This document shows positions 9,265-61,488 of a DNA stretch of 64,000 nt, in pieces. The notes under the pieces are model-generated. The model was not told where the DNA came from. It saw only the letters and a list, made by a program, of their open reading frames with translations, and made no database searches. Where the stretch lies: positions 138,092 to 202,091 of the forward strand of contig JBAYLA010000001.1 of assembly GCA_041664285.1 (NCBI GenBank). The letters run 5' to 3'. Numbering within the stretch: the first letter of the stretch is position 1; every line of letters starts with the position of its first letter. Origin of the DNA: Minisyncoccota bacterium (lineage in GTDB: Bacteria; Patescibacteriota; Minisyncoccia; Phycocordibacterales; UBA9973). Both the position numbers and the translations under genes were made by a program.

Positions 9265-9498
9265 ATGCAAAAGGTAACAATTTATTCAACTCCGTCTTGT
9301 CATTTTTGCCATCTGGCGAAAGATTTTTTTACGGCAAATGGTATCGTTTATACAGAGTATAATGTTGCGAGTGATTTAGAAAAAAGAAAAGAAATGATAG
9401 AAAAAAGTGGCCAAATGGGCGTGCCAGTTATAATCATAGGAGATGAAATCACTGTTGGTTTTGATAAGCCCAAGATAGCAAAATTGCTTGGACTTTAA
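9265..9498 (+). CDS. glutaredoxin-like protein (NrdH/Grx family)
   Basis: MQKVTIYSTPSCHFCHLAKDFF... has a CxxC motif and a thioredoxin-fold signature (GVPVIIIGDE). The track ORF 9148.. reads through tRNA-Gly, so the real start is the ATG at 9265. Confidence 0.75.
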   Translation: MQKVTIYSTPSCHFCHLAKDFFTANGIVYTEYNVASDLEKRKEMIEKSGQMGVPVIIIGDEITVGFDKPKIAKLLGL

Positions 9499-9635: not shown

Positions 9636-10454
9636 ATGGACAAATTGTTTAATAAGACAAATTCATTAGTAGAAACAGATTCTTCGTCGAAGACTATTGC
9701 CTCTAAGCTTTCAGATCTAATTGATTCTGGAGACAGTGTTGATTCAACTGTTTTAATGAGTGCTTTAGAAAAAGAAGAAATTACTCAATATCAATATATT
9801 ACTTTAGCTAATCAGCTTATGAAGAAAGGTGAGTGGACCGAAGACGCTCTTGCCAATGTAGGGAAAAAACTTGGAGATCAAATTGAAGGACTTGGGATTG
9901 ATCCTGTTACTAATCTTATGAGGTCTAATTTTTTAGAAGAAAGATTAGATCGTCTAATAAAAGAGTTAAATTTCAAATTAACCCCAGAAAAGAAACGCAG
10001 CTCTCCTTTATTTGCTGTTATGGTTATAGCTATAGACGTCGATAATTTAAGGATATGGAATACATATGGTCATGCTGTTGGCGACAAAGCATTGCGAATA
10101 ATTGCAGATTCTGTTAAAGAAGTAATTCGAGATGATGACGGTGCATTTCGTTTAGGTGACAAATCGGATGAAATTATAGTAACGATGAGAATTACACAAG
10201 ACCTAGAACCTTCTAAATTAGAAGAAATTTTTCGGCGAGTCAAACATAAATTAAATAGTAAATTTATAGAAATTGATAATATCAAGTTACCAGTTACAGT
10301 TGCTGCAGGGTGTGCAATATTGAAACCAGGAGAATCAAGAAAAAATAAAGAAATAATTCATGCCGCTGACCTAAATCAAGCAACGGACAAAACACTTGAA
10401 GTCAAAGAAGAAAGAATAAAGAAAGCTACAGTAAACTTAAATAAACTAAATTAA
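9636..10454 (+). CDS. GGDEF-domain protein with a degenerate active site
   Basis: IDVDNLRIWNTYGHAVGDKALRIIA matches the GGDEF-domain core, but the GG(D/E)EF motif is replaced by RLGDKSDEI. Confidence 0.5.
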   Translation: MDKLFNKTNSLVETDSSSKTIASKLSDLIDSGDSVDSTVLMSALEKEEITQYQYITLANQLMKKGEWTEDALANVGKKLGDQIEGLGIDPVTNLMRSNFLEERLDRLIKELNFKLTPEKKRSSPLFAVMVIAIDVDNLRIWNTYGHAVGDKALRIIADSVKEVIRDDDGAFRLGDKSDEIIVTMRITQDLEPSKLEEIFRRVKHKLNSKFIEIDNIKLPVTVAAGCAILKPGESRKNKEIIHAADLNQATDKTLEVKEERIKKATVNLNKLN

Positions 10455-17474: not shown

Positions 17475-18209
17475 TTAGTAAAGATTATCTCTCCCAAATT
17501 GAATCATCGTTAAAACATGCCCCTTTCCATTGTGTCTAACCACTTTAGTTTTTATTTTCTTTTTCATTAACTCTGCAATTAATTCTTCTCCATAAATCGT
17601 TGGAATATAGAAATCATGTGTTGCTAAATGTATTTCAATATTTTCTGGTAGATTATCTAGATTTTCAATAGGATTGGTGTCAGCAAGCAAAGAATCATAT
17701 TGTTCTCCATTTTCAAAACCAAGTGAGACCGCTCTCTTTTTAATACACTGACTTGCCATTCCTTTATAGATACAAGCACCCAATTTTGAACCTGGAGTTA
17801 CCGCAACCAATTTATCAACATTAAAATGATTGGCAATATAAAAACTAGGATATGCGCCAATGCTTAGACTTAAAACATTAAAATTATTTAAATTTAACGT
17901 TTTCAGATCATCCACTAATCTTTTCAACAAAACAATGGCAACAGATGGATCAGGGTTAGCAACACCTATAGGACCTTCATATGTTATGACTCTGCCATTC
18001 TTAGGAATTAGACCTAATTGAAGAGCTTGTTTAAAATTAACTCTCCATGGCAAAAAACAGACCCAAGTAGGGGAATCTCCATTTCTAATATCTGTTCTAA
18101 AATAATTTTCATCTCCAATTTCTTTCTCTCTTGATCCACTATTCTTTTTTGCATAGATTTTATCTAGTAAGCCGTAATCTTTTATTTTTGATAATAAATA
18201 ATTAAGCAT
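17475..18209 (-). CDS. alpha/beta-hydrolase fold protein
   Basis: Nucleophile-elbow-like LSLSIGAY and a C-terminal HNGKGH block; 244 aa. Confidence 0.4.
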   Translation of the reverse strand: MLNYLLSKIKDYGLLDKIYAKKNSGSREKEIGDENYFRTDIRNGDSPTWVCFLPWRVNFKQALQLGLIPKNGRVITYEGPIGVANPDPSVAIVLLKRLVDDLKTLNLNNFNVLSLSIGAYPSFYIANHFNVDKLVAVTPGSKLGACIYKGMASQCIKKRAVSLGFENGEQYDSLLADTNPIENLDNLPENIEIHLATHDFYIPTIYGEELIAELMKKKIKTKVVRHNGKGHVLTMIQFGRDNLY

Positions 18210-18235
18210 ATGTTTCTCGTGCTAGCACTTGATGG

Positions 18236-18290
18236 TGACCCTAATTATACGGAATTGGAACTTTATTTTTAATCAAATAAAAGGATTTTC
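18236..18290 (+). repeat. 55-bp direct repeat, left copy; resembles a degenerate tRNA-Glu 3' end (att-like)
   Basis: GTGACCCTAATTATACGGAATTGGAAC...AATCAAATAAAAGGATTTT is about 85% identical to 18878-18934. It begins with GTGACCCTA, the same 9 nt as the 3' acceptor end of tRNA-Glu(TTC) at 25259. Confidence 0.6.
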
Positions 18291-18311
18291 TAAAATACAA
18301 TTTTATATATA

Positions 18312-18349
18312 AAAACAGAAGGCCTCGCATAGAACGAAGAGCGAGGCTC
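18312..18349 (-). terminator. Rho-independent terminator (minus strand)
   Basis: On the minus strand: GCCTCGC-TCTTCGTTCTAT-GCGAGGCC followed by TTCTGTTTTT. It lies 35 nt downstream of the stop of ORF 18384..18773. Confidence 0.6.
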
Positions 18350-18383
18350 CTGTCTGTGCGAGGCTTGATACTTGGAGATCTGG

Positions 18384-18773
18384 CTATGGGAGGTTCGTGG
18401 GAGGTTTCATGAAGGAGTAGCCTACGCTGAATCCTTGACGAAAAATGACTACCAGCTCGAAGGACGACTCCTTCATTCCTGGCTCGTAGAGGGAAAGATC
18501 CACGAAAATCTGGTTTATCCACTCGCTCAGTACGACTGTCATCCGGTTCGAGTTCCTGAAGACTGCCAAGAGATAATTCCTCTTAACGCCTTCGGGGCGC
18601 AGGTATTCTCCCAAGAAATCCTTGAACTTTTCGTCGATGTCGTCTTTCGCTCCGGTCATGTTCTGTATGAACGAGAACGGAAAGCTCGACGCACTTTTTA
18701 GGACTGGGCTATCTTTCCACGCATTCCACTGTACCCAGAGCTTCGGATCGATCGAAGTGTTGATCTTTTTCAT
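18384..18773 (-). CDS. hypothetical protein (129 aa) in a GC-rich (about 50%) 0.6-kb cassette
   Basis: It is the only ORF in the cassette whose orientation matches the downstream terminator. Its composition is foreign relative to the flanks. Confidence 0.4.
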   Translation of the reverse strand: MKKINTSIDPKLWVQWNAWKDSPVLKSASSFPFSFIQNMTGAKDDIDEKFKDFLGEYLRPEGVKRNYLLAVFRNSNRMTVVLSEWINQIFVDLSLYEPGMKESSFELVVIFRQGFSVGYSFMKPPTNLP

Positions 18774-18877
18774 AATTTTCCCTTTCTAAGGAAGGCTTAC
18801 TACGGCCTGTACGGGACCCGACGTTGTTGTCAGGTTGTCCGTTATATTTTTAACACTATTATTAGCTCGTGTCAATT

Positions 18878-18934
18878 TGTGACCCTAATTATACAGAATT
18901 GGAACCACATTTTCAATCAAATAAAGGATTTTGC
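18878..18934 (+). repeat. 55-bp direct repeat, right copy (att-like)
   Basis: GTGACCCTAATTATACAGAATTGGAACC...AATCAAATAAAGGATTTTG. Confidence 0.6.
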
Positions 18935-18988
18935 GTTTTAATATAAATTGCCCTTATCCTAAAATTAGTGTAAAATGAGCTCATAACT

Positions 18989-19246
18989 ATGGATGAAAAT
19001 TACAGAAGGGTAAAATTTAATGACGTTTTTGATGAGAAGCCCGATGGGTCTTTATCTCCCAAAGTACCCATTGAAATAAATGGCGTAAATTTTAATTCTG
19101 GAACCACTTTTTCCAAAGGGGTTGTTTTTGGTGGTATCGATTTTCACCTCTATAAGAATCGAGATATAGCAATCCAAAATTCTGAAGTACCTGAAGAAAA
19201 TACTGATAGTACTGTATTTCACATAGTTGGTTTTTATAAAGAATAA
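18989..19246 (+). CDS. hypothetical protein (85 aa), element-borne
   Basis: Track ORF; first of three tightly packed co-directional small ORFs. Confidence 0.35.
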   Translation: MDENYRRVKFNDVFDEKPDGSLSPKVPIEINGVNFNSGTTFSKGVVFGGIDFHLYKNRDIAIQNSEVPEENTDSTVFHIVGFYKE

Positions 19247-19251
19247 ATAGT

Positions 19252-19611
19252 ATGGCCGATAAAAATCCTACAAAAACTGAAATCCTAGGAACGGTACAAG
19301 CTCAAGCAGAAACTTTAAAAGAATTATCTGAGCGCCTTGTAAAGATTGAAGGTCAAACGGAAAAACAAGAATCAAGAAATCAAAACATAATATATGCGGT
19401 ACTTTTCGCGCTTGCATTTATCGTAGTAACTGTTAGTGTTGAAGTTATACTATCGAGTAAAAGTGATAATTCTGTCGCTAATGATTTTTCTGAAAAACTT
19501 TTCAATATACAAGAAAATACAAACAACAAAATGAATGGTTTACAGAGCACAATAAATAGTATTCAAAGTGAAATTTTATTATTAAGAGCAAAAAATCCTT
19601 ATTTAAAATAA
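19252..19611 (+). CDS. hypothetical coiled-coil membrane protein (119 aa), element-borne
   Basis: Track ORF with a central TM helix flanked by coiled-coil-like segments. Confidence 0.35.
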   Translation: MADKNPTKTEILGTVQAQAETLKELSERLVKIEGQTEKQESRNQNIIYAVLFALAFIVVTVSVEVILSSKSDNSVANDFSEKLFNIQENTNNKMNGLQSTINSIQSEILLLRAKNPYLK

Positions 19612-19613
19612 AT

Positions 19614-19898
19614 ATGAAATCATATACCGTTAGAATTGAATTGCAAAATTCTGTTTTGGGAGATTACGAATCTCTTCATGTCGCAATGGAATCCGCTGGC
19701 TTTAGGAAGTTTATTATTTCAGATCAAGGTATTAAATACAAACTTCCAAATGGGGAATATAATATTTCTGGTAATTTTGATAGGGCAACAATTTTATCTT
19801 TGGCGAAAAGTGCAGTTACAACTACAAATAAAACTGCAGAGATATTGGTAACAGAGTCAAGTGGACGAACTTGGGCTAATCTGAAAGTTATAAAATAG
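19614..19898 (+). CDS. hypothetical protein (94 aa), element-borne
   Basis: Track ORF starting 3 nt after the preceding stop. Confidence 0.35.
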   Translation: MKSYTVRIELQNSVLGDYESLHVAMESAGFRKFIISDQGIKYKLPNGEYNISGNFDRATILSLAKSAVTTTNKTAEILVTESSGRTWANLKVIK

Positions 19899-19908
19899 TT
19901 TATAGATA

Positions 19909-21072
19909 TTATCTATTTCCTTTTGCTCGATTATGCGTTTTGCACAACATCTCACAATTATTAAGCATTGTTTTGCCACCTTTACTCCAAGCTGATACAT
20001 GGTCGGCGTCCATATCCGAAATACTCCAAATCTTGTCTTTGTTTGCATCGTGTCCAATCGCACAGTGAGAGCAGTTTGAAATACCTTTTTTCTTTGCGAT
20101 AGCAGTTTGAGCTTCGTAAACTGAACGCTTAGTTGAATCCTCAAATATTCTTACTTCAAGTAGCTTTGTTTCAACTTCTCCACCTAAAACATATTCAAAA
20201 ATGCCTTTTCGACTTTTTACGAAACCATCGGCATAGAGTTTTTTAACCAAAGCAGAGACGGTAGTCGGATTGTATTTTTTCTTGTGGTAAGTTTCGTAAA
20301 GCCTGTTCCATTCCAAGCCTCTCATATCACTTTCAACTTCAGTAAATATGGTTGAAACCCAATCAATGACTGTGTTGAAATGCTTTTTTAGCTCTGTAAT
20401 ATTTGTATCCTTTCTATGCATGCTCATGTAGTTGTCGATTGCACCGCCAGAAACCCAATCTAAGGCCTGTTCCAAATATGCTTGGCGTTTGATATCACCA
20501 GCTATGTACGCGCTCCATTTATGGACATTAGCATTTTGGCTATTACTAAACTCTTCGCGCGCCTTGGTAACAAAAGTCCCAGAATAGACAGCGTTCAAAA
20601 TTTCCTGCTCGGTCAGTGGCACACCAGCGATATTGATAGTCTTGAACCAATCCTTGATTTCAGGTTCGTCGCCTTCACACACATACACTAGCAACTTAGT
20701 ATTCATTATCTGCTCGCGCTGGCTAGTAGCCATACCACTGTAGTATTGTTCATGACCATTTTTGTCTTTGACTGCAAACTTACCAGCCACAAACCGACCG
20801 ATGCTCGTAATGCGTTGCTGACCGTCTAGCACCTCAAATTTATCCTTACCAGCTTGATTGAAATAAATTAAACCAATAGGATATCCTTTTAAAATTGAGT
20901 CAATAACCGCGACATCTTTTTTGCCATCAGCATAAATGTAATTACGCTGATACTCTGGCTGAATAGTTAGTTTGCCAGAGAGACCAAACAAACCTTTTCC
21001 TTCGAGTTCATTGTAGACGAAACCGTCGCAAACTTCTTTAATGGTAATATCATTTTTTAAGGTTGTTTTCAT
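19909..21072 (-). CDS. DUF262 (ParB-like DGQQR nuclease/NTPase domain) fused to a C-terminal HNH endonuclease; GmrSD/SspE-like
   Basis: The N-terminal ...FEVLDGQQRITSI... block is the DUF262 hallmark. The C-terminal CSHCAIGHD...DADHVSAWSKGGKT...NCEMLCKTHNRAKGN is an HNH motif. Confidence 0.7.
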   Translation of the reverse strand: MKTTLKNDITIKEVCDGFVYNELEGKGLFGLSGKLTIQPEYQRNYIYADGKKDVAVIDSILKGYPIGLIYFNQAGKDKFEVLDGQQRITSIGRFVAGKFAVKDKNGHEQYYSGMATSQREQIMNTKLLVYVCEGDEPEIKDWFKTINIAGVPLTEQEILNAVYSGTFVTKAREEFSNSQNANVHKWSAYIAGDIKRQAYLEQALDWVSGGAIDNYMSMHRKDTNITELKKHFNTVIDWVSTIFTEVESDMRGLEWNRLYETYHKKKYNPTTVSALVKKLYADGFVKSRKGIFEYVLGGEVETKLLEVRIFEDSTKRSVYEAQTAIAKKKGISNCSHCAIGHDANKDKIWSISDMDADHVSAWSKGGKTMLNNCEMLCKTHNRAKGNR

Positions 21073-21073
21073 A

Positions 21074-22264
21074 TTATTTCTTTTTGTGTTTAATTAGAAC
21101 TCTCTGATAAACTTTTTCTCTTAATCCATCACGAATAACAACACCACTCGCATTTAAATCATATACTCCTTTTTTCCCAAACTTATCTAAGTATGCCTGC
21201 TTACATTCCGCTGATGTATAAAATTTGGTCTTTAAACTATAAAGATCTTCGTTTTCACACATTCCTACAATCTTAAACTGTTCAGGAGAATACTTATCAA
21301 GAAAACTAATTGGCACACCCATGATGCCTTTGTAATTACTTGGTATGTTTTTTACTAGCGATACTTCAATCGCATCGTAGTTTTCATATTTCTCAAACTC
21401 TTTATTTGTTGAGAACTTGATTACATCTGCTCCTGACATCAAGGGAATTGGTTGGTGTAGTCGTCCGTGATCAAGATTTGTAAACCAACGCACCCCTTGG
21501 ACTCTTGTTATATAAGTCTTTTTACCTTTTTTGTCAGTCTTAATTTCACGTACTTGATCTAAGTTTGCAACAGCTTCTGGAATCTCATAGAACATTGCAC
21601 CGCCATTAACCCTTGCATTGTTTCCGAGCCATACCTTATTCTCTTTGATCATTGGAAAAATTTCCTTATAAGTTATTGCATTGAGATTACCAATGATTAG
21701 AAATTGTTTTTTGTGCTCGAAAAGTTGCGTAATATATTCACGAAATAAACTAAATGGAGGATTAGTGACTACTATGTCAGATTGTTTGAGCAACTCGACA
21801 CATTCGTCACTTCTAAAATCACCTTCACCCTCAAGCGGAGTCCATTCGTTGTTTTTGTTAGTTCTAAGTTGCTTCGCGATATCTTCTAGCGTAAAAGAGC
21901 CGTCGCCGTCCATGTCACCAACTTCGTTGATAATAAATTTGTTGGCAGTTACTTTTGGACGACCTTTTGATTTAGTAAGAGTTTTATCATCGCCAAATAA
22001 TCCCAATTGCGTATTGGCTACAGGTGAGGGTTTGTAACTTGTAGTGATAAGTTGTTTAAGTCCTAGTTTGTCAAAATTAAGTACAAAATAGCGAAAGAAA
22101 TTACTTTCGAATGGGTCGTCGCAGTTGCTGTAAACCACCTTACCTTTAAAAGTATTTGAGTCATACTCAAGATAGGACTCTACCTCTTTTTGAATATCAG
22201 AAAATTGAGTATAAAACTCATCATTTTTTGCCCGTTTTGCATTTGTGAGATTTTTGTTCGCCAT
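21074..22264 (-). CDS. N6-adenine DNA methyltransferase (EcoRI-methylase-like family)
   Basis: N-terminal KNDEFYTQFSDIQKEV block and motif IV VVTNPPF. It lies immediately upstream of, and is co-transcribed with, the DUF262-HNH gene (1-nt gap). Confidence 0.6.
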   Translation of the reverse strand: MANKNLTNAKRAKNDEFYTQFSDIQKEVESYLEYDSNTFKGKVVYSNCDDPFESNFFRYFVLNFDKLGLKQLITTSYKPSPVANTQLGLFGDDKTLTKSKGRPKVTANKFIINEVGDMDGDGSFTLEDIAKQLRTNKNNEWTPLEGEGDFRSDECVELLKQSDIVVTNPPFSLFREYITQLFEHKKQFLIIGNLNAITYKEIFPMIKENKVWLGNNARVNGGAMFYEIPEAVANLDQVREIKTDKKGKKTYITRVQGVRWFTNLDHGRLHQPIPLMSGADVIKFSTNKEFEKYENYDAIEVSLVKNIPSNYKGIMGVPISFLDKYSPEQFKIVGMCENEDLYSLKTKFYTSAECKQAYLDKFGKKGVYDLNASGVVIRDGLREKVYQRVLIKHKKK

Positions 22265-22530
22265 ATGTATCCTAACTTATGTTGAGAATTATAGCTGTTT
22301 TGGTTCCAAATTGCTAATGGTATTGACGCCATGAAATAGTTTAATGCCTAACCTGTCTTTTGGATTGACTTTTCGGAAAAAAAAGTGTACACTGTTATGG
22401 TAATAACAAAGAAGTTATCACAAAGCAAGTTTGAGTCAAAAGAATTTTAGAGAGAACTGGGACATAACCAGTTTTTTTATTTTTTAGGGAGATAACTCTC
22501 TAAAAAAAACAAAACAACGCACGTTTTTTA

Positions 22531-22566
22531 AAGCCCTCTTGAGCGAAATCCCGAGAGGGCTTTTTG
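22531..22566 (+). terminator. intrinsic terminator-like hairpin (bidirectional)
   Basis: GCCCTCT-tgagcgaaatccc-gAGAGGGC flanked by a T-run and an A-run. Confidence 0.5.
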
Positions 22567-22619
22567 CGTTTCCGTGTGGGCGCAAAATGCGTAATGGGTT
22601 TCGTTCTTTATAGCCGTAT

Positions 22620-22720
22620 TTGTGGTCGTAGCGATATCAGATTAGTGGCTGGCCACTTGTCTATCGCAATTACGACCACGATCCAAGCTAGTCGCCACCC
22701 GCTTTAGCGGTGGCGACGTT
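22620..22720. promoter_or_regulatory. GC-rich hairpin cluster upstream of rep; candidate rolling-circle double-strand origin / nick site
   Basis: GTGGTCGTAGCGATA...TATCGCAATTACGACCAC forms an imperfect 15-bp stem with a GTGGCTGGCCAC palindrome in its loop. GTCGCCACCCGC-TTTA-GCGGTGGCGAC forms an 11-12-bp stem. Confidence 0.45.
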
Positions 22721-22774
22721 GGACGAGCGAAGCGAGTCCGTTGGACTTGATTATACCCACACTTAAAGAGAAAT

Positions 22775-23593
22775 ATGAAATCAACAAATAGAACAATGAT
22801 TATATCTGGCTCAACGATTGAGGCTTATCACTACAAGGAAAGTCCATTGTTTTATGATTACGAAGTGCCTAAGGTTAAAAAATATCCGATTTTAGTTATT
22901 GATGAAGAAAGTGCGCAAAGAAAAATTGAATCTAGAAAATCTTCACAACATCGCTCTCGTTCTGTATTGAGAAGATTGGTAAATACAAATGCGTGGAAAT
23001 GGTATAAGGCTAGTGGTATTCCTTTCATTCCCATTTTTCTAACATTCACATTTGCTGAAAATGTAAAAGATATTAAAGTTGCCAACCCTATTTTTTCTAA
23101 ATTTATTAAGAGATTTAATTATGAAATTACTGGACAAAAGAAAAGTTTTCTTAAGTATGTTGTTGTTACTGAATTTCAAGAGCGTGGGGCAGTTCATTTT
23201 CATGCCGTATTTTTTAATTTAAAACATATTTGGGTTGATACGCTTACTAAAATTTGGGGTCAAGGTTTTATTAAATTAAAGAAAATTAGCCATGTTGATA
23301 ATGTTGGAGCATATATTTCTAAATACATGGTTAAGCATTTTGAAGACGATAGACTTGATGGAAAGAAAAGATATTTTTCAAGTAGCGGATTGATAAAGCC
23401 GACAGTTATAAAAGATGAAGTAAAAGTTCTTCAAATAATAAAGCGTATACCGAAAAAATATCTTAAACATGAAACTGAATATGAAAGAAAACATAAAGGC
23501 AAGAAAATAGGCACCGTTGAATACGTGCAATACAAAATAGACAAGAAGGAGTCTATCTTTGACATTATTCCTGAACTCAAACAAATGCCATGA
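22775..23593 (+). CDS. rolling-circle replication initiator (HUH endonuclease superfamily Rep)
   Basis: Motif I FLTFTF, motif II GAVHFHAVFF (HUH), motif III GAYISKYMVKH (catalytic Tyr), in canonical order. Confidence 0.7.
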   Translation: MKSTNRTMIISGSTIEAYHYKESPLFYDYEVPKVKKYPILVIDEESAQRKIESRKSSQHRSRSVLRRLVNTNAWKWYKASGIPFIPIFLTFTFAENVKDIKVANPIFSKFIKRFNYEITGQKKSFLKYVVVTEFQERGAVHFHAVFFNLKHIWVDTLTKIWGQGFIKLKKISHVDNVGAYISKYMVKHFEDDRLDGKKRYFSSSGLIKPTVIKDEVKVLQIIKRIPKKYLKHETEYERKHKGKKIGTVEYVQYKIDKKESIFDIIPELKQMP

Positions 23594-23772
23594 TTACTCC
23601 TGCCGACTGCCGAAAAATTGACCCTGCTCTTGAAAGTAAAACTGATAAGGAATTACAGGAGGTTATTGAACTTTTGTATGGTCTTGGAGGACTTGCCCTT
23701 GAATCATATTTTAGCGGTTCCAAAAATCTCCGTGGGGTATCTAGACTTAATAATAGTGATGTGCCAAAGTAA
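23590..23772 (+). CDS. hypothetical small protein (60 aa) between rep and the recombinase; possible directionality factor (speculative)
   Basis: Track ORF overlapping the rep stop (ATGCCATGA). Confidence 0.25.
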   Translation: MITPADCRKIDPALESKTDKELQEVIELLYGLGGLALESYFSGSKNLRGVSRLNNSDVPK

Positions 23773-23776
23773 TGCT

Positions 23777-25297
23777 ATGAATACTACCGATACAAAAAAT
23801 GGTGTTATCTATGTCCGAGTTTCTTCTGCTGAACAAATAGACGGCACAAGTTTAGAATCCCAAGAAAGATTTTGCCAAGAATATGCCAAGCGCGAAAATA
23901 TAAATGTCTTAAAAGTTTTTATTGAAAAAGGTGAATCTGCTAAGACGGCAAATAGAACCGAATTTATTAAAGCCATTAGTTTTTGCTCTGAAAAGAAAAA
24001 TAAAATAGAGTGCTTTATCGTTTACAAAGTTGATAGATTTGCTCGCAGTCAATCAGACCATATTTCTGTTAAGGAAACATTGAAAAAATATAATACAGAA
24101 CTTCATTCTGTTACTGAACCTATTGGTGATAGCCCAATGGGTAAAATGATGGAGGGCATACTCTCTACTTTTGCAGAGTTTGATAACAATGTCCGAACAG
24201 AAAGAAGTGTTAATGGTATGAGAGAACGCCTAAAACAAGGTGTATGGGTCTGGCAGGCTCCTCTAGGTTATTACAGAACTTCACAGGGCGAAAACATTAG
24301 TCCTGATCCTAAATTTGCTCCCTATGTGGAACTTGCCTTTAATGAATTTGCTAAAGGAACTTATACTTTTGAATCTCTAGCGAACTTTTTAAATGAAAGA
24401 GGTTTTGTAACTAAATGCGGAAATAAAGCCACCCCTTCTTTAATGGATAAAATAATTAAGAATCCTCTTTATTGCGGAATAATTAAAGTCTGGGACATGG
24501 AACATAAAGGTAGTTTTAATTACATTATTTCGGAAGAACTTTTTAATAAATGTAATGGACGGAAGAAAAAAGAATATATGCCTCGTCTTGCTAAAAATTC
24601 TAATTTCCCATTAAGAAAGTTGGTGGTATGTGAATCTTGCCAGCATTCGCTTACAGGAAGCTCGTCTACGGGCAGAAAGGGCGTTAAATATCCTTATTAT
24701 CACCACCACAAACAAACTTGCCCTTCAGCTAAATTTATTCCAAAAGAAACATTTGAACAGTTGTTTGTGGAATATCTAGCCGATATTACTCCTAGCCCAG
24801 AATATGAAAAAGTATTTAAGGCTATTGTTGTTGATATTTGGAAGAATAATTTTAAGAAGTTGGACGAGCAGAATGAACAAGTGCGAAAAGAAATCAAGGT
24901 TTTTGAAAATCAAAGACAGCGTGTTTTTGAAATGCACCAATCAGGTGTATATTCTGATCAAGATTTTATAGCACAGAAAGATATTCTTAATAAAAAGATT
25001 GCCGAGAAGAAACTTTTGATTCACGAAAAGGCTGTAGAAGAATTTAATATGGACGAAGCATTAGAATATTGCTTTAACTACATACGAGAAACTTCTAAGA
25101 CATGGATTGAACTTGAAACTGAACCAGAGAGAAGATTACGGTTCCAAAAATTTATATTTGCAGAAAATTTAGGATTTTCTGGTGAAGAATTTGGAACCAC
25201 AAAATTAACGCCTATTTACAGCATGTATCAGCAATATTTGACTGAACCATCTTCACTTGTGACCCTACTGGGAATCGCACCCAGATTACCAGCTTGA
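23777..25297 (+). CDS. large serine recombinase / integrase
   Basis: N-terminal resolvase domain GVIYVRVSSAEQ (catalytic Ser) ...VYKVDRFARS, a recombinase domain, zinc ribbon CESCQHSL...YYHHH, and a C-terminal coiled coil. Start taken at the ATG encoding MNTTD. The 3' end overlaps tRNA-Glu. Confidence 0.85.
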   Translation: MNTTDTKNGVIYVRVSSAEQIDGTSLESQERFCQEYAKRENINVLKVFIEKGESAKTANRTEFIKAISFCSEKKNKIECFIVYKVDRFARSQSDHISVKETLKKYNTELHSVTEPIGDSPMGKMMEGILSTFAEFDNNVRTERSVNGMRERLKQGVWVWQAPLGYYRTSQGENISPDPKFAPYVELAFNEFAKGTYTFESLANFLNERGFVTKCGNKATPSLMDKIIKNPLYCGIIKVWDMEHKGSFNYIISEELFNKCNGRKKKEYMPRLAKNSNFPLRKLVVCESCQHSLTGSSSTGRKGVKYPYYHHHKQTCPSAKFIPKETFEQLFVEYLADITPSPEYEKVFKAIVVDIWKNNFKKLDEQNEQVRKEIKVFENQRQRVFEMHQSGVYSDQDFIAQKDILNKKIAEKKLLIHEKAVEEFNMDEALEYCFNYIRETSKTWIELETEPERRLRFQKFIFAENLGFSGEEFGTTKLTPIYSMYQQYLTEPSSLVTLLGIAPRLPA

Positions 25298-25330
25298 AAA
25301 GCTGATGTCCTAACTATTAGACGATAGGGC
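25259..25330 (-). tRNA. tRNA-Glu (anticodon TTC); integration target
   Basis: Reverse complement GGCCCTA-TC-GTCTAATAGTTAGGAC-AT-CAGC-TTTTCAA-GCTG-GTAAT-CTGGGTGCGATTCCCAG-TAGGGTC-A. Confidence 0.8.
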
Positions 25331-25656
25331 CAAAACAGTTAATATCATACCATTTTTTGAAAAAATCGCAAAAATCTTGCAATTATAAAAATTTTATTTT
25401 ATAATAAAACCATGGCAAAGAAAGTTAATTATATGAATACAGCTTGGTGGACGACTCACATTTGTGGGTAGTCTTTCGTTGTATCTATAATTATCTCTAA
25501 AAACAACAACACGCAAGATACCCACAGAAAAGTGGGTTTTTTATTTGTTATTTAATTTTAAGATGAATAAATTTATTTTTAAAAATCATTGTACGGAGTT
25601 CTGGCAATAATAAACATTGTGCAGTTTTCTTATTATTATCTTAAAAATTAAACTAT

Positions 25657-32690: not shown

Positions 32691-33902
32691 CTATTTCTTA
32701 TTACGTCGTAAAAATGCTGGAACAGCGCTCCAGTCATCACCATCATCTTCAATAATTTCTTCCTTAACTTCTTTCTTTTCCATTTTCTTAATAAAATCAT
32801 TGTTACCTACACTTCCATTTTGTCTCCCGTTCTGCATATTATTTTGGATACTATTATTTATTTCTTTTTTTATTACCACTGGAGTTTCGTCTTTGAGAAG
32901 TTGGCCTACTACTGCCCCACTGTTAAAAAGATTTTTGCGAGGCATATCAGCAGGGAACGAGGTTGCTATCACGGTAACTTTTATTTCTCCCTTTTTCAAC
33001 TTTTCATCACGAATTGTTCCGAAGATTACTTTCGCATCTTTGTCGATTGATTCAGTAATTATTTTTGCGGCTTCTTGAATTTCATTAATAGTCAAATCAT
33101 CGCCACCAGAGATAGCGAAGAGCACCCCTTTCGCGCCGTGAATAGAAACTTCCAAGAGAGGAGAATTAATAGCAGCCAAAGCAGCTTTTTCAGCTCGCTT
33201 TTCTCCAGAAGCATTACCAATACCCATCAGAGCTGAACCAGCATTTGCCATGACAGCTTTAATATCTGCAAAATCAACATTAATGATACCCGGAGTAGTA
33301 ATTAAATCAGAAATACCTTCAACTGCTTGACGTAATACATCATCGCATTTAACAAAAGCATCTTTGAAATTAGTATTTTTATCAGCCAATTGGAGTAATT
33401 TATCGTTTGGAATAATAATGATAGCATCAACTTCTTTAGCCAAATCATCAATTCCTTTCTCGGCTATTTTCATTCGGTGATTTCCTTCAAAGAAGAAAGG
33501 TTTGGTTGTGACCGCTACAGTCAAGATACCTTGTTCTCTAGCTGCGCGAGCCACGATCGGAGCAGCGCCTGTCCCAGTACCTCCTCCCATTCCACAAGCT
33601 AGAAAAATCATGTCTGCTCCTTTGATGACATCTTGGATTTCAGACTTTGTTTCTTCAGCTGCTTTTTTTCCAACTTCTGGATCCATCCCAGCACCAAGAC
33701 CTTTTGTAAGATTTTTTCCTATATGAATTTTTTTCTCAGCCAGAGAGTGGTGTAAGTCTTGAGTATCTGTATTCATGCAAATAAAGGTGACCCCTTTAAC
33801 TTTAGAATTTATCATGTGGTTTACTGCATTCTTTCCAGAACCCCCGATTCCGATGACCATAATACGAGCAAAACTTTGTATTTCTTGATTTATTTTTGGC
33901 AT
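32691..33902 (-). CDS. ftsZ: cell division GTPase FtsZ
   Basis: IGIGGSGKNAVNHM...GMGGGTGTGAAPIVA tubulin/FtsZ signature. Confidence 0.95.
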   Translation of the reverse strand: MPKINQEIQSFARIMVIGIGGSGKNAVNHMINSKVKGVTFICMNTDTQDLHHSLAEKKIHIGKNLTKGLGAGMDPEVGKKAAEETKSEIQDVIKGADMIFLACGMGGGTGTGAAPIVARAAREQGILTVAVTTKPFFFEGNHRMKIAEKGIDDLAKEVDAIIIIPNDKLLQLADKNTNFKDAFVKCDDVLRQAVEGISDLITTPGIINVDFADIKAVMANAGSALMGIGNASGEKRAEKAALAAINSPLLEVSIHGAKGVLFAISGGDDLTINEIQEAAKIITESIDKDAKVIFGTIRDEKLKKGEIKVTVIATSFPADMPRKNLFNSGAVVGQLLKDETPVVIKKEINNSIQNNMQNGRQNGSVGNNDFIKKMEKKEVKEEIIEDDGDDWSAVPAFLRRNKK

Positions 33903-60462: not shown

Positions 60463-61488
60463 ATGAAAAAGGTCTTAATTCTAGGATTTGGAGGTACGAT
60501 CGCAATGATTCCCGACGTAAGCGGAGTTCTCGCTCCAGCAAAGAGTATCGAGGAAATTCTACTTATCGTACCATCACTACGCGAGATGGCTGATGTGGAA
60601 TTGGTGCAAGTTGAGAATAAAGATAGCACTAATATTACGCCTAGCCACTGGACAAAGTTAGCAATCAAGATCGCCGAAATTCATGGCGATTATGATGCGA
60701 TCATTGTCACCCATGGGACAGACACCATGGCATACACAGCGGGAGCAGTTTCACTGGCCCTCGGTCGTGAATTGGAGATTCCCATCGTTTTCACGGGATC
60801 TCAGCTTCCACTTATCTCGTACGGTTCAGATGCGCGCTTCAATCTCGAAAACGCAATGAAGACAGTTCTCGAAGCATGTGAGGTAGGTATCGCTGAAGTG
60901 ATGATTGTTTTCAGTGATTTAGTACTTCGTGCAAGTCGGACTGTTAAAATTAGCGAAGCGAAGTTCGGAGCGTTTGATTCACCAGCGTTTCCGTATCTCT
61001 CACAGATCACGGCAACTGGGGTTTGTTTCATTCCCCAAGCGCTCAAAGCCGGCGAAAAGAAAACGATTCTCGACATCAAGCCACATTTTCAGCGTGGCAT
61101 ATTGTCGGTCGAGATTGTTCCGGGACTCGAACCGGGAATCTTGATGGCCGTTCTGAAGTCCGGAACGTGCCAGGGATTGCTTCTCAAATCGCTCGGTGCG
61201 GGAAACGTTCCATCTGAAGAGGAGTATTCTATACTGCCAGTCATCGAGGCAGCGACTTCCAAGTACAAAGTTCCGGTTCTCGTTTCGACGAAGTTCGTGG
61301 GTGGCAACACACACATGGACATATACGAACCGGGCAAACTCGCCCTCGAAGCCGGAGCTATTCCGACCGGCGACATGACAGACGTCATGGCGCAGATCAA
61401 ATTCATGTGGGCTCTCGCACAAGGGCACCGTGACCGAAAATCGCTTGAGGAAGTAATTAAAAAGAGTTTTGTGGGAGAAATCTCTTAA
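60463..61488 (+). CDS. L-asparaginase / GatD-like amidohydrolase (type I asparaginase family), about 50% GC
   Basis: LGFGGTIAM (catalytic Thr motif), HGTDTM, and a C-terminal domain present. AAAGGAG SD 8 nt before the ATG at 60463. Confidence 0.75.
   Translation: MKKVLILGFGGTIAMIPDVSGVLAPAKSIEEILLIVPSLREMADVELVQVENKDSTNITPSHWTKLAIKIAEIHGDYDAIIVTHGTDTMAYTAGAVSLALGRELEIPIVFTGSQLPLISYGSDARFNLENAMKTVLEACEVGIAEVMIVFSDLVLRASRTVKISEAKFGAFDSPAFPYLSQITATGVCFIPQALKAGEKKTILDIKPHFQRGILSVEIVPGLEPGILMAVLKSGTCQGLLLKSLGAGNVPSEEEYSILPVIEAATSKYKVPVLVSTKFVGGNTHMDIYEPGKLALEAGAIPTGDMTDVMAQIKFMWALAQGHRDRKSLEEVIKKSFVGEIS

Follow-up and report, generated by a model that had tools for sequence, protein, structure and literature searches.

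A GC-rich segment flanked by direct repeats

The window, that is, the whole 64,000-nt stretch of Minisyncoccota DNA analyzed here, has a GC content of 34.8%, against which a short segment (18289–18878) stands out, with 48.6% GC over positions 18320–18860. In 200-nt steps across the segment, the GC fraction rises from 0.265 (approximately 0.27) to 0.48–0.50 and falls back to 0.31. The segment contains a single plausible gene, encoding a protein of 129 aa on the minus strand, followed by a strong terminator, and is bracketed by two direct repeats (18235–18288 and 18879–18932). The initial annotation, made from the sequence alone, had described such a GC-rich 0.6-kb segment between direct repeats, and this description holds. 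The repeats themselves, given there as 55 bp, are direct as claimed but 54 nt long and imperfect (ungapped identity, 85%), with no exact 55-mers. Of their first 27 nt, 26 are identical, and this 27-mer matches the window twice, compared with 0.00 matches expected from shuffled sequences; if one indel is allowed, the similarity reaches approximately 60 nt. A search for inverted repeats around the segment yielded weak AT-rich pairs only.

On the host side, a putative hydrolase gene (17475–18209, minus strand; weak match to the Pfam DLH family) begins 26 nt outside the left repeat. When the hydrolase was looked up by exact match, the same genome alone was returned, and no empty site was seen; the Rep protein of the neighboring element (see below) had no record. 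On the other side, the right repeat marks the beginning of a larger mobile element that extends to a tRNA-Glu gene.

A protein gene of foreign composition

The 129-aa open reading frame (ORF; 18384–18773, minus strand) has GC fractions of 0.446, 0.338, and 0.677 at the first, second, and third codon positions, respectively, such that the first two positions are host-like and the whole excess resides at the third. This is the highest GC3 value among the 54 non-overlapping ORFs of at least 110 aa in the window (mean 0.269, SD 0.081), five SDs above the mean. The ORFs overlapping this gene in other frames show no such codon-position pattern, in agreement with the earlier view that the antisense ORFs are an artefact. 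The second-highest GC3 in the window (0.50) belongs to an ORF at 60463–61488, just past a tRNA-Ile gene, which is probably spurious, being located inside an rRNA gene.

An exhaustive HMMER search against 1.84 billion representative proteins identified five full-length relatives (126–131 aa; identity 40–67%; E values from 3.5e-50 to 1.6e-17), and a subsequent profile search added a sixth full-length homologue. All these proteins can be aligned with the 129-aa protein from end to end with few gaps, none of them frame-breaking, and those with a source name come from metagenome-assembled genomes of Paceibacterota or Pacebacteria. A further match, to a protein of 1,536 aa (P0007), was judged spurious, as it involves only a short low-complexity region of a repetitive protein, presumably, from the look of its sequence, a nematode polyprotein. 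For one pair of homologues at a syntenic locus, dN/dS is 0.24 at a dS of 0.95, which indicates purifying selection on a protein.

The 129-aa protein has no family match in Pfam, NCBIfam, PHROGs, PADLOC, or the sequences of the PDB, and tblastn against phage and plasmid collections produced no match. Viral contigs, scanned with the protein profile, the leader motif, the repeat, and the recombinase, likewise gave no hits. Modeling with AlphaFold2 from an alignment of five sequences reached moderate confidence (pLDDT 78.5, pTM 0.76) and predicts one strand followed by approximately five helices and a four-stranded sheet; a Foldseek search with this model found no significant neighbor in the PDB or BFVD. 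The protein belongs to an uncharacterized family of small proteins of Paceibacterota/Pacebacteria.

The 129-aa ORF does encode a protein; its composition is foreign, and it was acquired horizontally. High GC3 is also found in relatives, with values near 0.65 in the homologues of two loci (L008 and L015) from genomes of approximately 40% GC, which weakens the argument that the un-ameliorated GC3 is a sign of recent arrival. The homologues that we identified reside at other loci; none with a native-like composition was found at the same locus.

A complete transcription unit with a conserved leader

The segment appears to form a complete transcription unit that consists of a promoter-like site, a structured leader, the gene, and a terminator, all on the minus strand. 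The promoter-like site (TTGACA-18-AAAAAT; 18846–18875), a consensus match only, lies directly inside the right repeat, and a similar site was read by eye at the equivalent relative position in the homologues. The intrinsic terminator (18311–18364, with the stem at 18322–18364) is a GC-rich hairpin followed by a U-run, with a predicted free energy of −24.6 kcal/mol (z −4.6 versus shuffles). In line with the earlier description, the segment is a cassette of foreign composition, and a self-contained one.

Between promoter-like site and gene lies a leader of approximately 70 nt (18774–18840), which is found upstream of every family member for which the DNA was read and is better conserved than the protein. 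In all five distinct sequences, the same elements follow in the same order, namely, AGGC-N-R-UAGUAA-GCCU, a CC-rich stretch, RAAGG(G), and AAUUAUG, and the 14-nt core of the leader occurs once per homologue-bearing locus, always just 5′ of the gene. Of the hairpins that can be drawn, the upstream one, P1, is paired in all sequences, with three of its six pairs changed on both sides, whereas P2 (AGGC-CRUAGUAA-GCCU) is invariant and hence uninformative for covariation; in single-sequence folds, a third hairpin pairs with the Shine-Dalgarno sequence. A covariance model built on four sequences (the window, L008, L015, and L018) recovered two left-out members, L020 (44.5 bits, E 2e-8) and L021 (29.2 bits, E 1.7e-4), and had no further match in 200 kb. 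From this small sample, the leader can be considered a candidate translational operator of the orphan protein. Elsewhere in the window, at 32903–32916 on the minus strand, the sequence GGCAGTAGTAGGCC matches the invariant hairpin motif of the leader with one mismatch.

The leader also delimits what can be retained of the earlier suggestion that the segment encodes a structured non-coding RNA, with the ORF being accidental. GC-rich islands in AT-rich genomes often are RNA genes, and the minus strand of the segment indeed folds better than shuffled sequences (z −3.96). For the body of the segment, however, this explanation is highly improbable, given that the GC excess is confined to third codon positions, that full-length proteins are conserved across relatives and evolve under the dN/dS given above, and that one of the homologous genes has just 34% GC. 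Moreover, a search of the window with Rfam 15 recovered tRNAs only at the gathering score and, over positions 18100–19050, nothing better than an E value of 2.9, with no match in the cassette proper even at E ≤10. Within the cassette, the leader alone has the look of a conserved RNA structure.

A family of elements targeting tRNA-Glu

The mobile element adjoining the segment spans 6.4 kb (18879–25258) and combines restriction-modification cargo with genes for Rep and a large serine recombinase. It is located at the 3′ end of the tRNA-Glu(UUC) gene (25259–25331, minus strand), its integration target. The cargo module (18912–22268) comprises three small ORFs, a GmrSD/HNH nuclease, and an EcoRI-type methylase. 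Further inward, on the plus strand, a gene for a rolling-circle-type Rep (22775–23593; Pfam REP_ORF2-G2P, with a weak match to RepSA) and a small ORF precede the recombinase gene (23777–25297; start codon of our choice), the product of which contains the Resolvase, Recombinase, and Zn_ribbon_recom domains. For its last ~13 codons, the recombinase gene runs through the tRNA-Glu 3′ end on the complementary strand. The Rep gene is preceded by a GC-rich non-coding stretch (22530–22740) with a terminator-like hairpin and a perfect hairpin, GTCGCCACCCGCTTTAGCGGTGGCGAC, which may be a replication origin of the element.

The recombinase has more than 1,600 homologues at E ≤1e-20. We compared the element with relatives encoding three of these recombinases, P0013 (L027), P0014 (L028), and P0016, the latter in ten contexts (L029–L038); P0013 and P0014 are each 71% identical to the recombinase of the window. 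The relatives share a core consisting of Rep, an ORF of ~60 aa, and the recombinase, and the cargo is variable, although often of the restriction-modification type. Eleven of the loci continue beyond the recombinase gene, and in every one of them this gene adjoins a tRNA-Glu gene (CUC or UUC) on the opposite strand, and at the six junctions that we read (L027–L032), its 3′ end overlaps the tRNA. Thus, this is a family of Rep and large serine recombinase elements that targets tRNA-Glu. The same element, with an identical recombinase (P0016), occupies tRNA-Glu(UUC) as well as tRNA-Glu(CUC) genes across several host contexts.

The cargo module has a distribution of its own. Modules 88–93% identical to it are present in other metagenome contigs (L023–L026), next to Fic/HTH genes and without Rep or recombinase, which indicates that the module moves independently of the core of the element. 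Its left boundary is located inside the right repeat, just past the arm motif described below, and a metagenome scan for this end of the module identified one alternative context only. An 85-aa protein of the module is recorded in 101 blocks of the collection.

The repeats as probable attachment-site arms

Both repeats are related to the target tRNA. On the minus strand, each of them ends in TAGGGTCAC, the 3′ end of tRNA-Glu(UUC), and the complement of this end, the 9-mer GTGACCCTA (hereafter, the core), occurs only three times in the 64 kb, always on the same strand: at 18235, at 18879, and at the tRNA-Glu 3′ end (25259). The resemblance extends beyond the core. The outer 34 nt of the repeats score 8.5–11.5 against tRNA-Glu 3′ ends and at most 7.5 against ten other tRNAs of the window, and in each of the six comparisons between repeats and tRNA-Glu, no more than 9 of 5,000 shuffles reached the observed score. 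Compared to the tRNA, the repeats contain 4–5 extra nt between the acceptor-stem segment and the T-arm-like GGAATTGGAAC, such that the distance between core and GAATTG motif is 4–5 bp greater in the arm than it is for the T-arm of the tRNA. In the attachment sites of large serine recombinases, the outer (zinc-ribbon) motif is located 5 bp nearer the center in attB than in attP (PMC3783163), and the offset observed here would fit this half-site rule. The left repeat would then consist of the core and an element-type (P′) arm, ATTATACGGAATTGGAAC...ATAAAAGGATTT, and the right repeat, of the core and the P′ arm of the large element.

The arm motif of the repeats, GTGAYCC-N9-RRAATTGGAAC...ATAAAGGAWTT, recurs at the distal ends of related elements, namely, at position 6366 of L027 (GTGACCCACTGTAGTAGAAATTGGAAC...ATAAAGGAATT), at position 6009 of L028 (GTGACCCAAGTGGTACGGAATTGGAAC...TAAAGGAAATT), and in L029 and L032 (GTGATCCATTGTAGCACGAATTGGGAC). 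The latter two loci contain one element in two hosts and are identical from the core inward, with unrelated outer flanks; hence, the arm belongs to the element. Strictly, this comparison demonstrates an element-borne arm for a relative of the element in the window. The core itself follows the end of the local tRNA, reading GTGATCC where the tRNA has GTGATCC and GTGACCC where it has GTGACCC. Two other accounts of the repeats, as a duplicated promoter or as decayed, displaced tRNA 3′ ends, are superseded by the presence of the same motif, with its additional 4–5 nt, at the outer junctions of these related elements.

The boundaries of similarity between the two repeats conform to this assignment. 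On the outer side, the similarity ends exactly where the core ends, which is what a site-specific crossover would produce, and on the opposite, inner side, it fades past ~55–60 nt, where the two units diverge. Both repeats additionally contain a well-spaced consensus match to a σ70 promoter, facing outward: TTAAAA-17-TATAAT in the left repeat (18272–18244), facing the hydrolase gene, and TTGAAA-17-TATAAT in the right repeat (18916–18888), facing the cassette. The TATAAT box of the arm might therefore now drive neighboring genes, with the left arm probably serving the hydrolase gene and the right arm reading into the cassette.

The initial annotation had proposed a site-specific, integron-like capture of the cassette, possibly via the nearby serine recombinase. 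Given that both repeats correspond to the attachment arm of its family, this recombinase very probably was involved. The integron-like part of the proposal, namely, capture by recombination between attC and attI, accounts for a single small gene lying between repeats next to a recombinase gene, but is the least credible of the explanations considered here. The recombinase is of the large serine type and not an IntI tyrosine recombinase, and no integrase was found among the ORFs of the 14–24 kb region; the repeats reproduce a tRNA-like arm in direct orientation and are not attC inverted repeats, and no attC-type site is present at the cassette end; and both a promoter-like site and a terminator lie within the cassette.

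A probable recombinase-less unit in tandem with the large element

Taken together, these observations can best be explained by a tandem array. Under this reading, to which we assign a probability of about 0.6, the segment body (18289–18878) and one repeat make up a 644-bp single-gene unit that lacks a recombinase gene and is located in tandem with the 6.4-kb element at tRNA-Glu. The two repeats would be two copies of the element-borne arm, one per unit, with the right repeat representing the outer junction of the 6.4-kb element and the left repeat, that of the cassette unit. The contribution of one arm by each unit points to serial site-specific recombination rather than transposition or integron capture. 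Such serial recombination at the tRNA-Glu end, with strand exchange presumably at the TG of the core, would have built the array in which the 644-bp unit is now distal, and the recombinase would either have placed the small unit there or trimmed it to its present size. The earlier notion of an insertion into a divergent promoter region is correct as far as it goes but too narrow, the site being the outer junction of an integrated serine-recombinase element.

The tandem arrangement is supported by the positions of the sites and by a second, similar unit. The core occurs at the unit boundaries in a single orientation (18235, 18879, and 25259), and the arm motif is common to L027, L028, L029, L032, and L008. 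The last of these, a 20-kb locus from a Pacebacteria genome in which the cassette protein likewise has a homologue, yielded no recombinase gene call and contains a near-identical arm, ATGACCCAAATTATACGGAATTGGAAC, at position 9387, followed by a single ORF for a 91-aa membrane protein and then by core and tRNA-Glu at 9723. Accordingly, this unit measures 336 bp; it and the unit in the window are the two single-gene units that we observed.

Tandem insertion imposes a demand on the recombinase. Canonical serine integrases recombine attP with attB only (PMC3783163), and insertion next to a resident element thus requires tolerance toward the left half-site. The variable left flanks of the sites suggest that the recombinase may possess such tolerance. 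Neither an excised circle nor an empty site was found; the locus is known in three further copies, all of them 100% identical to the window.

A different history could have led to the same arrangement. The small unit might be the remnant of an older full-size element of the family that lost Rep and recombinase by deletion, possibly through action of the recombinase on an internal pseudo-site, and it would then never have been an independently mobile mini-cassette. This scenario, which differs from the favored one in the history of the unit only, is possible, although we consider it rather unlikely. It agrees with the gene content of all full-size relatives, in which Rep, the 60-aa ORF, and the recombinase adjoin the tRNA, and with the 85% identity of the arms, as expected of two related but distinct elements. 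Furthermore, the inner end of the small unit (18849–18878) is unlike the recombinase-proximal arm of the family, with 11 of 26 positions matching in a by-eye count, which is near chance for AT-rich DNA. Deletion would, however, have to occur twice independently, in the window and in L008, and to end in both cases exactly at the core, with the gene start or promoter within 4–6 nt, a precision that itself implies a site-specific process.

Alternatively, one junction could have been copied locally as foreign DNA entered by illegitimate recombination or repair, in which case the repeats would represent an unusually long target duplication. The two arms share not only the core but also the spacer ATTATAC, which would fit duplication of a single junction as well, and a complete attP cannot be demonstrated on the cassette. 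Nevertheless, we regard such a duplication as improbable, because the left edge of the repeat coincides exactly with the attachment core and because L008 contains another single-gene unit with an arm and a core at its boundaries. The 15% difference between the copies, for a cassette that has not drifted toward the composition of the host, also argues against it, an argument that is weakened by the high GC3 that homologues retain elsewhere.

Returning to the tandem unit, a bolder version can be formulated, in which the elements run a minimal cassette system at tRNA-Glu, with single genes of 0.3–0.6 kb, each bearing one element-type arm, inserted and exchanged by the recombinase in trans, the arm acting as an outward promoter for any sequence beyond it, and the leader controlling the orphan protein. 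We consider this extension speculative and, at present, unlikely.

Relationship to known systems

Several known systems share individual features with this locus. Elements of the pSAM2 type in actinomycetes encode RepSA and an integrase, of the tyrosine type, together with transfer genes, and integrate at a tRNA gene. The element described here similarly combines a rolling-circle Rep with site-specific integration at a tRNA gene but is smaller, employs a serine recombinase, and carries restriction-modification cargo. In tandem islands formed by tyrosine integrases, direct repeats of the tRNA 3′ end mark the junctions, and newer islands are found next to the tRNA. Here, by contrast, the recombinase is of the serine type, and the arm is element-borne, with its extra 4–5 nt, rather than a plain copy of the tRNA end. 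Integron cassettes resemble the small unit in that a single small gene bounded by recombination sites constitutes the unit; they usually lack a promoter of their own, whereas the cassette described here has its own promoter-like site and terminator, and there is no attC, attI, or IntI.

The tandem arrangement resembles that of the composite islands of the staphylococcal cassette chromosome (SCC), in which tandem elements, including recombinase-less pseudo-SCC units, are separated by repeated integration-site sequences (PMC3900703). As in SCC with its CcrAB or CcrC, large serine recombinases insert at the 3′ end of a conserved gene, and restriction-modification cargo is common (PMC3900703). Unlike in SCC, the target is tRNA-Glu rather than rlmH, the hosts are of the Paceibacterota type, the elements encode a rolling-circle Rep, and the recombinase-less units are only 0.3–0.6 kb long with one gene each; there is no sequence relationship, and the elements described here are known from their sequences alone. 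The attachment sites, in turn, resemble those of phage large serine integrases (A118/LI, Bxb1, and phiC31) in the short core and in the outward shift of the outer motif of the element arm, by ~5 bp in the phages (PMC3783163). In the present case, the shift amounts to 4–5 bp and is deduced from alignments only, and canonical integrases do not join attP to hybrid sites, as tandem insertion would demand. Within the tandem islands of large serine recombinases, the locus stands out by the very small size of the unit without recombinase, by its host group, by an attachment arm that mimics the tRNA, and by an orphan protein whose conserved leader is undescribed.

Bacteria of the candidate phyla radiation have tiny genomes with few described mobile elements, and this locus exposes a widespread family of them. 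The family members that we examined are small elements with Rep and serine recombinase that often carry restriction-modification genes to tRNA-Glu, and units in an array of this kind can be reduced to one gene. If the units move in trans, they would constitute a very compact gene-capture system, the serine-recombinase counterpart of integron cassettes, and for organisms in which genetic tools are currently lacking, the arms would offer portable landing sites. A defined protein–RNA pair is provided by the orphan protein together with its conserved leader.

Genomic neighborhoods of related loci

At six loci from two lineages (L008, L014–L017, and L019), the gene of the cassette family is located ~150–200 nt from the 5′ end of a tRNA-Glu(CUC) gene, in divergent orientation and upstream of DUF2200, rhodanese, and TerC genes; the tRNA was confirmed with ARAGORN in L008, L014, L015, and L016. 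This is the opposite side of the tRNA from that in the window, and the proximity to tRNA-Glu in L008 and L014–L016 was rejected as an instance of the same insertion mode, the gene being on the 5′ side of the tRNA there.

Two of these loci show signs of recombination. Over 1,524 nt, the DUF2200, rhodanese, and TerC genes are 100% identical between L008 (9700–13729) and L015 (200–4248), whereas the adjoining ORFs of the cassette family are 73% identical and their leaders, 92%. This drop in identity indicates a recombination breakpoint at the 3′ end of the cassette-family gene and, hence, mosaic genomes. L008 also contains, at 9796–9850, a pseudo-copy (33 nt) that corresponds to the 5′ half of a tRNA-Glu with the L015 type of sequence; located 22 nt upstream of the intact tRNA-Glu gene, between that gene and the cassette-family gene, it suggests an older recombination inside the tRNA-Glu gene.

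Homologues of the hydrolase encoded next to the left repeat (L003–L007) are scattered over assemblies labeled as Peribacteria (63% identity), Moraniibacteriota (51%), Azotimanducaceae (46%), Pacearchaeota (45%), and a Patescibacteria group bacterium (32%), and no conserved neighborhood or tRNA-Glu gene was found around them. This patchy distribution and the lack of a conserved neighborhood suggest that the hydrolase gene may itself be horizontally mobile.

Finally, the 1,302-nt contig L021, which encodes the homologue P0005, has identical 30-nt ends and thus is either circular or a tandem array. Its two small genes differ from each other; both have, as read by eye, a promoter-like site and a hairpin resembling a terminator, and they are separated by direct repeats of 65–150 nt (84–92% identical) that are unrelated to those of the window. 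Hence, a second member of the protein family is also bracketed by repeats.
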